Shown: in pieces, positions 2,500 to 49,975 of the stretch | Layout of the letters: every line of letters starts with the position of its first letter | How positions within the stretch are numbered: the first letter of the stretch is position 1 | Virus record (IMG/VR): IMGVR_UViG_2617271087_000004 | Origin: a virus | Lineage: Duplodnaviria; Heunggongvirae; Uroviricota; Caudoviricetes | Direction: 5' to 3' (one strand) | DNA: 64,000 nucleotides | Position numbers and translations under genes: made by a program | The notes under the pieces: model-generated | Seen by the model: the letters and a program-made list of their open reading frames with translations, nothing else | What the model was told of the DNA's origin: nothing | Database searches by the model: none

Positions 2500-3351
2500 A
2501 TGATAAATTATGTCTACGGCGAACAACTGTACCAGGAGTTCGTCAGCTTCAGGGATCTCTTTCTAAAAAAAGCTGTTGCACGCGCCCAACACGTTGATGC
2601 CGCCAGCGACGGTCGTCCTGTACGCCCGGTTGTCGTTCTGCCGTTCAAAGAAACGGACAGCATTCAGGCTGAAATTGATAAATGGACTTTAATGGCGCGA
2701 GAACTGGAACAGTACCCAGACCTCAATATCCCAAAGACTATTTTATATCCAGTGCCTAACATCCTTCGCGGTGTGCGTAAGGTTACAACTTATCAGACAG
2801 AAGCTGTGAACAGCGTCAACATGACCGCTGGCCGCATTATTCATCTGATTGATAAGGACATTCGCATCCAGAAAAGCGCGGGGATCAATGAGCACAGTGC
2901 GAAATACATAGAGAACCTGGAAGCAACAAAAGAGCTAATGAAGCAGTACCCGGAGGATGAAAAATTCCGTATGCGTGTACACGGCTTTAGCGAAACAATG
3001 CTGCGCGTCCATTACATTTCCAGTAGCCCTAACTACAATGATGGTAAATCAGTTAGTTACCATGTGCCGCTGTGTGGTGTGTTTATCTGCGATGAAACTC
3101 TCCGTGATGGAATCATCATCAACGGTGAATTCGAGAAAGCAAAATTTAGCCTTTATGACTCTATAGAACCGATCATCTGCGACCGCTGGCCGCAGGCAAA
3201 AATATATCGCCTGGCAGATATTGAAAATGTAAAAAAACAAATTGCCATCACTCGCGAAGAGAAAAAGGTCAAATCAGCCGCATCAGTTACGCGCAGCCGT
3301 AAAACTAAGAAGGGGCAGCCAGTAAACGACAACCCCGAAAGCGCGCAATAG
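2500..3351 (+). CDS. c1: C1 primary immunity repressor
   Basis: 283-aa ORF with SD (ggagga); size and position convergent with pacB as in P1; operators upstream. Confidence 0.9.
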   Translation: MINYVYGEQLYQEFVSFRDLFLKKAVARAQHVDAASDGRPVRPVVVLPFKETDSIQAEIDKWTLMARELEQYPDLNIPKTILYPVPNILRGVRKVTTYQTEAVNSVNMTAGRIIHLIDKDIRIQKSAGINEHSAKYIENLEATKELMKQYPEDEKFRMRVHGFSETMLRVHYISSSPNYNDGKSVSYHVPLCGVFICDETLRDGIIINGEFEKAKFSLYDSIEPIICDRWPQAKIYRLADIENVKKQIAITREEKKVKSAASVTRSRKTKKGQPVNDNPESAQ

Positions 3352-3375
3352 TTTCTATCCGGCATGGTTAATGAG

Positions 3376-4860
3376 TTATTCATTAAGCCATGCCAGAGCT
3401 TCATCAACCTGCGCTTCGTCTTCGACGCTAAGCACTTCATCCTGGGGAACATAGTTCGCCAACATAGCGAAACAATATGTATCCCAATGGTCCGGTGAGT
3501 GCAGGTTGAGTTTTTTCTTCATATCTTCCTTTGACATCACCTTCCATTGACCTGCGGAATTTATCCCTACCGGTATCTTTGATGCTTCCTCTATAGTCGC
3601 AGCCCCCTTATCAAGCCTCATACGCCCTGATTTTACAGCTTCTGCCGCCTGAATATTCGCGAAAGCGCGCATATCGAAATAAAGGCTTTTATCTTCACGG
3701 CTGTGCATCTTTTTACCCCAGCGGATACGCTGGACGGTAATACCATAGCGTTCGTACATTAGATCAGCCGTCGATTTCCCCAAGCCATCGCCATCAATAG
3801 CTATGGTTATGTTCGGGAACCGTTCTGGGTTACATTCTGCGAAAATCTTGGCGGCTAACTGCGTTTCTGTAACGTCTGTGTATTCCAGCATACGATAGTT
3901 GATTACACGGCGTTTATTTCGCTGGCCGGACACCATCATGATATTAATAACGGACTTATCTCGTCCTGTGCCACCAGCAACGTCAACACATGCAACCCAG
4001 CCCCATCCTTTGGCAATCTTGACCTTTCGCCGCGTCGCCCGCTCAACCTCATCACGACCAAGAAGAAAGCCATCTTGAGATTTGGGAAATTCACCACGTA
4101 CTTTGATCATGTACATGGGGTTATCACGACCGCCATACTCCGCAAGTTTTGCTCGTATAAATTTTGCATCTACAAGCGGAGATTCTTCACTATTCAGTAT
4201 TATCGCAGTAAACAATCCATCAGGATTTCCCGGGCGAATAGCTAGTCTGTGGTGTGAATCGTAGAAATAGCCTGAAGGTCGCGTAGGCTGGGAAAGAAGC
4301 AGAATACGGTTATCCTTACCGGTCAGCGCACCTGTTATCACACTGAATGCTTTATCACTCACACCCGACGCTTCGTCGATGATATACAAGAGATGATCGG
4401 CGTGTTCACCAGCCAACGCCTCCTCATTCCCGGGGCGACAGGACTTTATCAATATTGTCCAAACACCCTTGCCAGTCACCTCAAAAAAAGACGTTTCTGT
4501 AAGAATGAAATACTTCGACAACCACGGGAATCTGCTAACAGCAGTAGCCCAATTGCTCTTTATGTATTTGAAAATACCATCAAGGACTTGCTGTCTTTTG
4601 TTAGCGACCAGAATGACGCGAGCGCCGGGGAAAAACATGATGAAGAGTATTGCAATGATACTCGTCATATCCGATTTACCAGTACCATGGCCGGAGGTCA
4701 CACTTGTCCAACTGCCGTCCTGCTGCGTGGACTCAATGATCTCATCCTGCTGCCAGGTTGGTGTCTTCCCAAACAACACATCAGCGGCCGCAATCCAGTC
4801 ATAACGATATAGCGCCACAAGCTCGCGCCAACGTGGGTCCGTTACGCAACTTCTGGCCAT
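3376..4860 (-). CDS. pacB: PacB terminase large subunit
   Basis: 494-aa ORF immediately downstream of and overlapping pacA; terminase position in P1 synteny. Confidence 0.85.
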
Positions 4861-7751: not shown

Positions 7752-7952
7752 TTATCTGCTGCCCGGCATTCTCTGTTTAAGCACAACCATTTCCTGACGG
7801 CATAACACAGCAATAGCGGTCCTGACTCCAATTTGCTTACCAACCAGGTATTGCTTTACCTTGCGGCGACTCACGCCATCAAGAAGCATCTTTAACGCTT
7901 CACGGGACAATTTGTTGTATTTGCGTGCCATTAATCTACTCCGCAGAACCAT
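7752..7952 (-). CDS. pdcA: PdcA-like small protein
   Basis: 66-aa ORF overlapping the doc 3' end, post-doc position. Confidence 0.5.
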
Positions 7953-8316
7953 ACAATCTACGTAACGTGTCGGCGACAGAAGATACAGATATCTCGCCAG
8001 TCGCAGCGCCTACGGTAAGGTCTGCCAGTTCAGGTGAATCAAATACCTGCACCCCGTTACGGCGTAGAAATAGCAGCGCACTGTTTAGCGCGGTACGCTT
8101 ATTGGCATCATTGAATATATGCCCTCTCGCTGTAGCCACCAGGTAGGTGGCGGAGACTTCGAAAAGGTCGGTGATCTCTTCGTAGGCAACTCTGGCCTGA
8201 ACTCTCCCGATAATGGCCTCTGCCCTACCCGGATCAGACATTCCCGGCAGGCCGCCGTAGCGGCTTATATTCGCATCATGAAGCGCAACAAGTTCTTCCG
8301 GTGATATATGTCTCAT
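7936..8316 (-). CDS. doc: Doc toxin (Fic-fold kinase) of the phd/doc addiction module
   Basis: 126-aa translation recognisable as P1 Doc; ATGA overlap with phd stop. Confidence 0.95.
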
Positions 8317-8537
8317 TATCGGTTAACCAGTTCCTTGTTGGTGGAGTCCAGGGTGTCAAACAGGGATGCAAATTCAGCATCCAGCGCCGCTTTTTTGTAG
8401 GCTTCGAAAGTAGCCTTGCTGACAATTACTGCTGGCTCACGGCCTCTGCGGGTGATTTCAACCTCTTCCCCGGCTTCAACATTGTTGAGCACTTCAGAAA
8501 GGTTGCCACGCGCGGTACGGAAGTTAATGGATTGCAT
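8316..8537 (-). CDS. phd: Phd antitoxin
   Basis: [16 protein letters not shown]... matches P1 Phd; track ORF begins two codons earlier. Confidence 0.95.
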
Positions 8538-47870: not shown

Positions 47871-48380
47871 ATGGGGCACAATAACACTAAGGGAAACCGT
47901 AAATTTATTAAGGGCCGCTATACTGCCAACGCGGCCAAAGGCGAACGACTGGTATCTTCTGAATTCCAGCTCACTTTTGCAGGCCATGAAGATATCAGCG
48001 TACTGGTTCGCACGTCGCAAATTCCTGAAATGACCCGCGAGGATGTGGAGGACTATGGTCCGAATGGTGTGAAGTTCAACCAGCACGGTCCAATTCGAAA
48101 CTCTGGGGAAATCCAGGTCCAGTGCGTGGAGACTATCGAAGGCGATATTCTTCAGTTCATTAAAGATCGCATTGCGGCGAAGGACTATGTTGATATCACG
48201 ATGGCTGCGACCCCTGAATCCAAATCTTCCGGGGTTAACGCTGTGACAAAAGCTGCTACAACAATTGAAATGTTGGACTGCAAAATCTACAGTGATGCAA
48301 TCGACTTTAGTACCGAAGATGTGACTGCCGCTGTGCGCCCGTCACTTCGTATCGTCTACAACTGGATTGAGTGGGATTAA
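47871..48380 (+). CDS. putative tail-tube-like structural protein
   Basis: 169-aa ORF; size and C-terminal WIEWD reminiscent of tube proteins; terminator follows. Confidence 0.45.
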   Translation: MGHNNTKGNRKFIKGRYTANAAKGERLVSSEFQLTFAGHEDISVLVRTSQIPEMTREDVEDYGPNGVKFNQHGPIRNSGEIQVQCVETIEGDILQFIKDRIAAKDYVDITMAATPESKSSGVNAVTKAATTIEMLDCKIYSDAIDFSTEDVTAAVRPSLRIVYNWIEWD

Positions 48381-48400
48381 GAGTCATCCCTTGTATTTTA

Positions 48401-48426
48401 AAGCTCCTTCGGGAGCTTTTTTATTT
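48401..48426. terminator. bidirectional rho-independent terminator
   Basis: AGCTCC-TTCG-GGAGCT hairpin plus T-run; ends the + late operon and the minus hok-like transcript. Confidence 0.75.
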
Positions 48427-48496
48427 GGAGAGGAAAGGGTGCATTGAGGATACCTGACACACGAAGAGTGGCGGAGATCTCTCCCCGCCAGGTCTC

Positions 48497-48652
48497 TTAC
48501 CTTTCAGATTCGTAGGCTGTGAAGACAGTGACCTCCGTCTGGCTGGTTCGGATTCGTACCTCGCAGAGGTCTTTCCTCGTTACCAGTGCCGTCACAATGA
48601 CGGTTAAACAGATGACGATCAGAGCGATTAACATCGCTTTTTGCTGCTTCAT
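48497..48652 (-). CDS. Hok/Gef-family type I toxin, 51 aa
   Basis: MKQQKAMLIALIVICLTVIVTALVTRKDLCEVRIRTSQTEVTVFTAYESER matches the Hok LTRK.LCE.R...EV..F.AYES signature. Confidence 0.8.
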   Translation of the reverse strand: MKQQKAMLIALIVICLTVIVTALVTRKDLCEVRIRTSQTEVTVFTAYESER

Positions 48653-48710
48653 AGCCTGCTTCTCCTTGACCTTTTGGTCGGTAAGAGGCTAATCTACGTA
48701 TGCTAAGCAT
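48504..48710 (-). CDS. Mok-like overlapping reading frame
   Basis: 68-codon ORF starting upstream of and overlapping the hok-like ORF in another frame. Confidence 0.5.
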   Translation of the reverse strand: MLSIRRLASYRPKGQGEAGYEAAKSDVNRSDRHLFNRHCDGTGNEERPLRGTNPNQPDGGHCLHSLRI

Positions 48711-48833
48711 AGATATGGCCTCAGATTAATGTTAAGCGTCTTGCAGGACGCGTAATGTTATCTGGGGCTTTCTTCTATCTGCTTTTCGGGTAATGCCTGA
48801 AGCAGATAGCCTCAAGCACCCGCAACGATTGTA

Positions 48834-49160
48834 TCAATGTCTGGCTTTTTTTCTATAGAAATCACCTGGAAGGGTGAATATCCACATCAGAAGAAATGTT
48901 GCAGCAAACATGATCCCTAATGGCCAGACCGCGCCAAAGAAAATCCATACTAAGATCTCCTCTGCTTGTTCTTTGCGGTCGATATCGACAAGCATTTTTC
49001 GGCTGATCATGTATACACAGAAGCCAATACAAACATATCCTGCAAAAGCGATCGCTAACTGTAAAAAATCAGATTGCATCTCCGACCTCAAACTGAAAAC
49101 GCCAGGTGACTCCAGATTAGAGCAATCTATCACCCTCTGAATCCTGCCGGTATACCCCAT
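48834..49160 (-). CDS. small membrane protein downstream of repL (probable start at internal Met)
   Basis: Two predicted TM segments. Confidence 0.45.
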   Translation of the reverse strand: MGYTGRIQRVIDCSNLESPGVFSLRSEMQSDFLQLAIAFAGYVCIGFCVYMISRKMLVDIDRKEQAEEILVWIFFGAVWPLGIMFAATFLLMWIFTLPGDFYRKKARH

Positions 49161-49975
49161 TGTTCGTTATCTTTATTTTTGGCTAAAACCGCATTAAGAG
49201 CTTCGTTTACCGTCATGCAATGCGGCAGATTATCGAAGTTTGATACCCCGCCAATATCAGGAGAACGCTTGTTCTTCAGGTAAGCATATTTCCGCGCTGC
49301 CGCCTCTGCTTTCTGCTTAAACTCATGTTTTTGAGCGCGTTTTTTGGATAACCGCAGATTGTCAGCCTTTGCTTTTGCCTCAGCGATCCATGAAGTCAAT
49401 TTTTTGAGTCTGGTCGTTCCGGCACCGCCGGAAACTGATCTTTTTGTTTTTTTAACTTGTGACTTCTTATTCTTTATTGCCACGTCATCCTGACAGGGGG
49501 AGGGGGTATCATTTTGACATGGGGGTGTGGATAAAAAATTAAATAAAGCCAATGTCTTAGCGAGAACAGCTTTAACCTTGGTTGCCGCTGAAGAGATCTT
49601 TAATTTGCTTTCAATCAGCGCATTTTTGGCTTGTTGTGCGAAGGCCAAAAAGGATGGCGTAAACCGGTACAGGTTAGCGCGACGTTCACGGTGATCGCCG
49701 ATAACAATCTCTACAGACAGAATTCCTTTGTTTACAGCTTCACGGAATGCACGAACGACGGTTGATTGGCTATAACCAGTTTCTGCCGCGATCAGGCGGT
49801 GAGGCTTGTGAATGAAGTATTCACTGGTTGTTGCCGCGAGATTTGCACATTGCGATAGGATATGCCCGGCGCTACGGGATAGACCGGAGTGTGTTACAAA
49901 GAAGGCCAATTCATAGCCAGAAAAAGTAAAATCGCTCATCGTTATACAGCTCAGGAAAGTGACTTTAGCCAGCAT
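49130..49975 (-). CDS. repL: RepL lytic replication initiator (oriL expected within the gene)
   Basis: 281-aa ORF downstream of kilA in the C1-controlled kilA-repL operon. Confidence 0.8.
   Translation of the reverse strand: MLAKVTFLSCITMSDFTFSGYELAFFVTHSGLSRSAGHILSQCANLAATTSEYFIHKPHRLIAAETGYSQSTVVRAFREAVNKGILSVEIVIGDHRERRANLYRFTPSFLAFAQQAKNALIESKLKISSAATKVKAVLAKTLALFNFLSTPPCQNDTPSPCQDDVAIKNKKSQVKKTKRSVSGGAGTTRLKKLTSWIAEAKAKADNLRLSKKRAQKHEFKQKAEAAARKYAYLKNKRSPDIGGVSNFDNLPHCMTVNEALNAVLAKNKDNEQWGIPAGFRG

Follow-up and report, generated by a model that had tools for sequence, protein, structure and literature searches.

A predicted intact hok/mok/sok type I toxin-antitoxin cassette in the repL-bplB interval of a P1-like phage-plasmid

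We report that a 64-kb stretch of viral DNA (64,000 nucleotides, here referred to as the window) carries, between positions 48437 and 48855, what its sequence indicates to be an intact hok/mok/sok type I toxin-antitoxin cassette with every component of the R1 model present. The hok/sok (parB) locus of plasmid R1 is the archetype of the type I toxin-antitoxin and post-segregational killing systems. We are highly confident in the assignment of both the identity and the regulatory mechanism of the cassette as hok/mok/sok, and we consider it probable that the best overall explanation is an intact cassette that most likely serves as a second addiction module. Below we describe the setting, the toxin and antitoxin genes and the RNA elements, and how the cassette compares with known systems and with altered forms of the locus in related plasmids.

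The window is a P1-like IncY phage-plasmid. An 821-bp region around the hok locus is 100% identical to pPK5086-95kb (NZ_CP080373) and to two further plasmids, and across the 24.4 kb compared the window and NZ_CP080373, in which repA and parAB lie about 8 kb from hok, are 97-99% identical. The replicon is a plasmid prophage of low copy number that has repA, parAB and phd/doc. The locus sits between bplB (47871-48380, + strand) and repL (49130-49975, - strand), in agreement with the original prediction, which placed it between the structural operon and repL and proposed it as a second candidate post-segregational killing module; phd/doc, the other such module, is indeed present in the same replicon at 7939-8537 (- strand).

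Comparison with the reference P1 genome (NC_005856) using blastn showed that homology passes through kilA and repL, stops at 49116 and resumes at 48422, i.e., 42 bp beyond the bplB stop codon. The 693-bp segment in between (48423-49115) replaces a P1 interval of 1,826 bp with Orlf-distal sequence, rlfA, rlfB and pmgF. At its left breakpoint, P1 homology breaks inside the C1 operator Orlf just after the core ATTGCTCTAAT, which is kept in the window. Eight variable cargo regions are distinguished in P1-like plasmids (Yang et al. 2022, PMC9603915); the repL-bplB site is region 5, and hok is alternative cargo at this known variable site. It had been suggested that hok might lie within what was named a replication-linked function in P1; since the segment 48423-49115 replaces rlfA-rlfB-pmgF, hok is not hidden in the P1 rlf genes. 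The P1 genes share the repL-bplB interval with the hok cassette but have no sequence relationship to it (rlfA encodes a DUF3800 protein of 234 aa and rlfB one of 154 aa), and a tblastn search of the rlfA-rlfB-pmgF interval detected no Hok-like ORF. Both reference P1 and P7 are wholly without the hok cassette.

The replacement segment also includes an 81-aa ORF (48834-49079, - strand; 108 aa if started at 49160) between repL and hok, which is a neighbour within the segment and lies outside the hok cassette. It corresponds to WP_001369095.1 (PGAP) and matches PHROG 3772, of unknown function, at 8e-54, while searches against Pfam and NCBIfam gave zero matches. Its homologues are found in P1-like elements only, two of them being named 'membrane domain protein' by their source.

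The toxin gene hok (48497-48652, - strand; 51 codons) is present in the list of ORFs, its translation is exactly the 51-aa peptide given in the original prediction, and it has a Shine-Dalgarno (SD) sequence, AAGGAG, at 48662-48667. The proposed Hok/Gef signature was borne out by the Pfam profile HOK_GEF (PF01848), which matched residues 6-47 over all 42 profile positions with an E-value of 1.3e-20 and 73.1 bits (cut-off 22), and by PHROG 251 ('MokW-like host killing'; 4e-31). Moreover, Hok retains C15, T17, L29, C30, E31 and E40, the equivalents of the conserved Hok-family positions listed in a 2026 preprint. The Pfam, PHROG and Rfam scores of the locus rule out a chance ORF. The NCBIfam Hok models scored below their curated cut-offs (NF007279, Hok family, 46.5 vs 73 bits; NF007290, HokA, 36 vs 89 bits) and a HokD-specific model was absent among the NCBIfam matches; PGAP calls the identical protein HokD despite these scores, presumably by another rule. 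A sequence search of PDB with Hok gave no match, and no second hok was detected in the 64-kb window by tblastn.

Overlapping hok in another frame is the 68-aa mok frame (48504-48710, - strand), which is also in the ORF list and matches PHROG 37205 at 5e-21. The frame runs from an ATG at 48710 to a stop at 48504, ending 7 nt before hok does, and both position and register are those of the annotated mokW of the Shiga-toxin phage 933W and mok of Rac, in keeping with its earlier description as the Mok-like frame. The mok SD, GAGG (48719-48722, - strand), is positioned 8 nt upstream of the mok ATG and is kept in all aligned loci. The overlap fits the translational coupling of the family, and from this arrangement we predict that hok is coupled to mok.

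The Tyr47 codon of hok, UAC, is followed by G (48511-48514, - strand), and the resulting UACG matches the motif for A-to-I editing by TadA, which recodes Tyr to Cys; our claim concerns the presence of the motif. UACG at the homologous Tyr position has been described for hokC, hokD and hokE. Inspection by eye of the surrounding sequence gave at most 3 bp of a tRNA-Arg-like stem, and the minimum free energy (MFE) fold has no such stem. As Tyr47 stands at a C-terminal position where some homologues have Cys, and other Hok members Cys or an editable Tyr, full Hok toxicity may need TadA editing.

The predicted hok/mok promoter (48828-48855, - strand) has a -35 element TAGAAA (48855-48850), a 16-nt spacer and a TGn extended -10 element TACAAT (48833-48828), with 9/12 consensus matches plus TG in a promoter scan. 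The -10 element is located 7 nt upstream of the first base of a match to the Rfam model RF01794 (48647-48821, hok strand; 114.9 bits, cut-off 59, E 5e-27), which in cmscan spans model positions 1-157 of 157 and is not truncated; despite its name, 'sok', what this model represents is the leader of the hok mRNA, on the hok strand. From the -10 element and the start of the Rfam model we infer a 5' end of the hok mRNA at ~48821, and its 3' end from the cassette homology, which stops at 48437; lambdoid, Rac and hokC-type loci are homologous over 48437-48833. The predicted full-length mRNA (48434-48821, - strand) would be about 385-388 nt. In an alignment of six loci, a conserved block extends from GGGTGCTTGAGG to CCTCAA(T/C)GCACCC, while the flanks (promoter and sequence beyond the block) are unrelated between loci; relative to the lambdoid hok loci, conservation is seen in the transcript region but not in that of the promoter.

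Unconstrained folding of the RNA 48821-48434 gave an MFE of -154.6 kcal/mol (z = -7.5, 100 shuffles), in which the long-range pairings of the R1 model appear. Specifically, the translational activator element tac, GGGUGCUUGAGG (48810-48821, - strand), at the predicted mRNA 5' end and with the same sequence in 933W, Rac and hokC-like loci, pairs with the fold-back inhibitory element fbi, CCUCAAUGCACCC (48437-48449, - strand), which is the final conserved block of the cassette. The tac/fbi duplex has 12 bp with one bulge and an energy of -21.0 kcal/mol; this energy was reached by 36/5000 shuffled 3' UTRs and by 2/1015 windows of the same 64-kb sequence, and the pairing elements are conserved in the aligned homologues. 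The ucb or anti-SD box GCCCC (48764-48768, - strand; 48768-48764 in the direction of transcription) pairs with GAGGC in the same fold and sequesters the mok SD, with a C.A mismatch that is the same as in R1 (C74/A106; Le Rhun 2022, PMC9841398). The downstream complementary box dcb, GCCUC (48685-48689, - strand), forms the 3' side of the hairpin around the mok SD in the Rfam consensus structure and is kept in the aligned loci. Finally, the GC-rich stem-loop GGCGGGGAGAGAUCUCCGCC (48470-48489, - strand) is present in the MFE structures of both the full-length and truncated RNAs and is predicted to form the 3' end of the processed (truncated) hok mRNA and to protect it; in R1, mRNA stability requires the equivalent hairpin (PMC9841398).

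For the truncated RNA, the MFE structure contains a local tac hairpin (leader alone -61 kcal/mol) rather than the open tac/ucb form, although the open-form Rfam consensus structure fits the leader when imposed as a constraint (-45 kcal/mol). The truncated RNA of the R1-type control likewise lacks the open form in its MFE structure, and MFE folding hence does not discriminate the open form.

The convergent antisense gene sok lies in the region where it had been suggested to look for it (48650-48830). Its predicted promoter (48666-48695, + strand), with a -35 element TTGACC (48666-48671), an 18-nt spacer and a -10 element TAATCT (48690-48695), was placed by homology to the R1-type and 933W loci and aligns with TTGCGC/TATCCT in the former and TTGCCT/TAACCT in the latter. 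It was not reported in a generic sigma-70 scan, which passed over it because the -10 element matches the consensus at just 3/6 positions; the -35 element is near-consensus. The predicted Sok RNA (48702-48776, + strand; the 3' end is approximate) would be about 71-75 nt and maps onto the annotated sokW RNA of 933W (48702-48772). Its first ~15 nt form a single-stranded tail that is complementary to the mok start codon and is followed by a long hairpin, which covers the mok SD, and a U-rich tail (MFE -30.4 kcal/mol, z = -4.6).

A bidirectional terminator had been proposed to close the locus. A hairpin, AAAGCTCC-TTCG-GGAGCTTT, is indeed present at 48400-48419; the bidirectional part of the proposal did not stand, as the scan calls the hairpin a terminator for the + strand alone, and on the hok strand, where it is weak, just three U come after it. 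It is the bplB terminator on the + strand, is the same in reference P1, and belongs to the phage backbone and not to the cassette. The hairpin at 48400-48419 is the sole terminator-like element downstream of fbi. Since terminator-like hairpins just past fbi occur at other aligned hok loci, it may act as such for hok too.

If the mechanism known from R1 (Le Rhun 2022, PMC9841398) applies, the weak promoter would give a stable hok mRNA of about 385 nt that is inert in its full-length form, with tac paired to fbi and the mok SD masked by ucb. Its 3' end would be trimmed slowly as far as the stem-loop at 48470-48489, with loss of fbi, and refolding of the leader in the trimmed mRNA would make both the Sok target and the mok SD accessible. 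As long as the plasmid is present, Sok, a short-lived RNA, would pair with the region spanning the mok SD and start codon, leading to cleavage of the duplex. Upon plasmid loss or transcription shut-off, Sok would decay first, mok would be translated, hok would be translated by coupling, and the 51-aa Hok would depolarise the inner membrane.

The likeness to R1 hok/sok extends to the order of the parts: weak hok promoter, tac, ucb, Sok target, mok SD and frame, dcb, hok SD, a Hok of ~50 aa, 3' stem-loop and fbi, together with a convergent sok gene whose promoter overlies the start of hok. The distance from tac to fbi is 385 nt here and 391 nt in the R1-type locus (L011), the truncated forms are 356 and about 358 nt, and the R1-type RNA folds alike, with the tac/fbi and ucb/SD pairings in its MFE structure. 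The differences are that Hok is about 40% identical to its R1 counterpart and the DNA can be aligned in short boxes only, that the Sok target hairpin has about 16 nt more than the Rfam consensus, and that tac/fbi reads GGGUGC.../...GCACCC with one bulge instead of GGCGC.../...GCGCC. Moreover, the function of R1 hok/sok has been demonstrated by experiment, whereas the present locus is known from its sequence.

A closer likeness is found to hokW/mokW/sokW of 933W and to the Rac-type hok/mok, with 88-91% DNA identity across 48437-48833 and the same enlarged Sok hairpin. At the protein level, Hok shares 90-92% identity with HokW of 933W and Hok of Rac, and 80% with a HokC-like protein. Residues 37 and 42 are Ser and Thr here, whereas they are Gly and Ala in the 933W, Rac and hokC-like proteins. 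The 933W and Rac loci belong to integrated lambdoid prophages, whereas the cassette described here is carried by an extrachromosomal P1-like plasmid prophage, and their promoter regions and the sequences past fbi are unrelated to those in the window. By sequence, we assign the cassette to the hokD/hokW (prophage) subtype of the hok/mok/sok family. The K-12 loci hokD (relF) and hokC (gef) are similar in that PGAP names the present protein HokD and in having UACG at the equivalent Tyr codon; insertion elements, or rearrangements with loss of components, are considered to have inactivated these loci, whereas the copy in the window is complete and free of insertion elements.

The gene itself cannot be said to have been overlooked, as implied in the original prediction, since PGAP annotates hokD in hundreds of identical or near-identical plasmids. 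In the identical plasmid NZ_CP080373 it is annotated 'hokD: type I toxin-antitoxin system toxin HokD' (PGAP/RefSeq); MH422554 mislabels the hok ORF 'MokW' and phi456 leaves it unannotated. The arrangement repL-ORF-hok-bplB is present in 236 of 5,426 complete E. coli genomes and in at least 263 plasmids, with the hokD label in nearly all of the best-matching plasmids listed. Venturini et al. 2019 (PMC6906374) had already noted the substitution, as an "antibacterial toxin". Literature searches found no dissection of hok/sok in P1-like elements, which is a weak negative since terms containing a slash could not be searched; the matches for P1-like elements and hok dealt with hok on other plasmids of the same strains.

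Two types of altered forms were found among the relatives. In PLSDB, 212 plasmids have an intact hok 3' UTR and 195 have the exact junction of an IS186 element (1,338 bp) inserted in the hairpin at 48470-48489, with a 10-bp duplication at 48476-48485 (L013), which separates fbi from hok. The IS186 allele is that of, for example, pfosA3 (NZ_CP047005). Since hok and fbi are split by IS186 in as many as 195 sister plasmids, the intact cassette is dispensable for these plasmids. The stem-loop at 48470-48489 fits GGGG-N6-CCCC, which we take to be the target preference of IS186. The second type is represented by RCS47, SJ46 and 673R5, which lack hok and keep the region 48833-~48687, i.e., the hok promoter, the leader and the Sok body, while a gene on the opposite strand replaces hok. 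The sok-like gene of these relatives still folds well and has promoter-like hexamers. The orphan sok hairpins show compensatory-looking changes, which could stem from selection after hok loss or from descent from a different hok allele.

With respect to the biological role, the most likely one for a plasmid prophage of one copy, in which our confidence is about even, is addiction: the cassette would be its second module for post-segregational killing, in addition to phd/doc. The two modules share the replicon and the expected outcome, i.e., death of plasmid-losing cells, but differ in that phd/doc has a protein antitoxin and a Fic-family toxin while hok/sok has an RNA antitoxin and a membrane toxin; phd/doc is conserved in essentially all P1-like elements (PMC9603915), in contrast to hok/sok, which is variable cargo. 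Against a killing role, the nearest relatives of the cassette are prophage and chromosomal hok loci and not plasmid ones, and according to a preprint (10.1101/2025.08.07.668861) chromosomal hokA, hokB and hokC do not kill cells that have lost a plasmid. That report also speaks for a hitch-hiking or decaying relic, transcribed and silenced by Sok and making no measurable contribution, like the chromosomal hok of K-12; we regard this as possible though doubtful. Nearly half of the plasmid copies have IS186 in the 3' stem-loop with fbi cut off, which parallels K-12 hokC/gef, where an IS186 just downstream of hok separates, and is thought to disrupt, fbi; in addition, hok is deleted in other lineages, and P1 and P7 manage without it. 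The IS186 insertions, however, may reflect a hot spot or one clonal event and not selection against hok, and in the window all elements are intact, with no frameshift, stop or IS. The conserved Hok residues are kept as well, and 42/45 Hok homologues were toxic irrespective of their location (Escalera-Maurer et al.).

A working toxin-antitoxin pair could also have been selected for defence or competition instead of plasmid retention, which we consider unlikely. In the case of defence, a lytic phage would shut off host transcription, Sok would decay and Hok would kill the cell (abortive infection), and exclusion of T4 by R1 hok/sok has been reported (Pecota and Wood 1996); in the case of competition, the cassette would exclude competing P1-like elements. 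That its closest relatives reside in lambdoid and Rac prophages fits such roles, as does its place in one of the eight variable cargo regions (PMC9603915), and the foldable sok-like gene kept by the hok-less relatives would suit anti-addiction. The circuit would nevertheless be the same as for plasmid retention, and the sequence does not separate the two. Though we consider this quite improbable, the repL-bplB site may be an arena of addiction and counter-addiction among P1-like phage-plasmids. If so, where a hok-bearing P1-like plasmid competes with an incompatible one that has orphan sok, the orphan antitoxin RNA could neutralise Hok, and its carrier could displace the rival plasmid without being killed. 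Far-fetched in our judgement is that read-through from kilA-repL at lytic induction opposes Sok synthesis and makes Hok an auxiliary host-killing or lysis-timing function. The order kilA-repL-ORF81-hok, all on the minus strand, the repression of the kilA-repL operon by C1, the C1 operator core kept at the left breakpoint and the presence of merely a weak terminator-like hairpin (48862-48877) in between are compatible with read-through, but the argument is one of position alone. A 5'-extended transcript would lack a free tac end, a change not known to activate translation; moreover, the cassette comes with a promoter of its own and works in other prophages whose contexts are quite different, and P1 and P7 lyse normally without it.

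In conclusion, the cassette is real and complete, yet its family is well known and the gene is already annotated, and the absence of a dissection of hok/sok in P1-like elements is a gap of description and not of biology. The contribution of the present analysis is local, namely the full map of mok, Sok and the RNA elements, which are left unannotated in public records of P1-like plasmids, and the demonstration that hok replaces rlfA-rlfB-pmgF of P1. The intact, IS186-disrupted and hok-deleted forms constitute a natural series for asking whether selection maintains such cassettes. P1-like plasmids frequently carry resistance genes and, as seen here, often harbour a second potential addiction module. 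Strategies for plasmid curing, and work with vectors derived from P1, could be affected by it.

The segment that carries the hok cassette in place of the P1 (NC_005856) genes rlfA-rlfB-pmgF (48423-49115) has its left breakpoint within the C1 operator Orlf (Op55; window 49110-49126), where the operator core ATTGCTCTAAT is retained and the last six bases are unlike those of P1 (CTGGAG vs TATAAC). Between repL and hok lies an 81-aa ORF (48834-49079, or 108 aa and extending to 49160 if read from an upstream ATG, in which form it shares 31 nt with the end of repL). It matches PHROG 3772 (function class: unknown), its homologues were found only in P1-like elements from E. coli, E. albertii and Salmonella. 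The source name given to two of these homologues is 'membrane domain protein'; by eye, the ORF has two hydrophobic stretches.

In the P1-like relatives 673R5, RCS47 and SJ46 hok is gone, and a gene on the opposite strand (171-210 aa) stands in its place. The hok-less remnants, equivalent to window 48833-~48687, map to 2252-2411 in 673R5 (L004), 3439-3598 in RCS47 (L005) and 2950-3031 in SJ46 (L006). The first two retain the hok promoter, tac (the pairing 5' end of the predicted hok mRNA), ucb (the anti-SD box over the mok SD) and the body of the predicted antisense RNA Sok, while SJ46 is recognisable only from ucb to the mok start, body of Sok included. The -10 element TAATCT is kept in all three, each with a -35-like TTGCTC 18 nt upstream, and the predicted Sok RNAs give good folds (-28.8 to -30.6 kcal/mol) despite approximately 10 substitutions. 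These sok-like sequences could be orphan antitoxins, or mere remnants.

The 3' side of the cassette is altered in a sister plasmid (NZ_CP047005, L013), which carries a 1,338 bp IS186 (2859-4196) in the GC hairpin directly 3' of hok, flanked by a 10 bp target duplication, GGAGAGATCC. Among PLSDB plasmids, 195 have IS186 in this hairpin, cutting fbi (the pairing 3' end) off from hok, and 212 have an intact 3' UTR; disruption of the same kind is known for K-12 hokC/gef. In the window the hairpin (48470-48489; insertion site equivalent to 48476-48485) reads GGGGAGAGATCTCC, one base off the GGGG-N6-CCCC form of the IS-bearing allele, which fits the target preference of IS186.

RepL of the lytic replicon (49130-49975) had no Pfam match in our scan, and RefSeq calls it a 'helix-turn-helix domain-containing protein' or a 'MarR family transcriptional regulator', automated names that hide the replication function. 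Rfam RF01794 'sok antitoxin' matches 48647-48821 on the hok strand; since its 157 positions begin at tac and end at the hok AUG, what it models is the leader of the hok mRNA rather than the antisense Sok RNA of ~70 nt, and an annotation pipeline relying on it would put 'sok' on the wrong strand.

Finally, the hok Tyr47 codon is UAC followed by G (window 48511-48514), i.e. the TadA A-to-I editing motif. The equivalent Tyr is recoded to Cys by editing in hokC, hokD and hokE, and such recoding here would supply a partner for Cys30.
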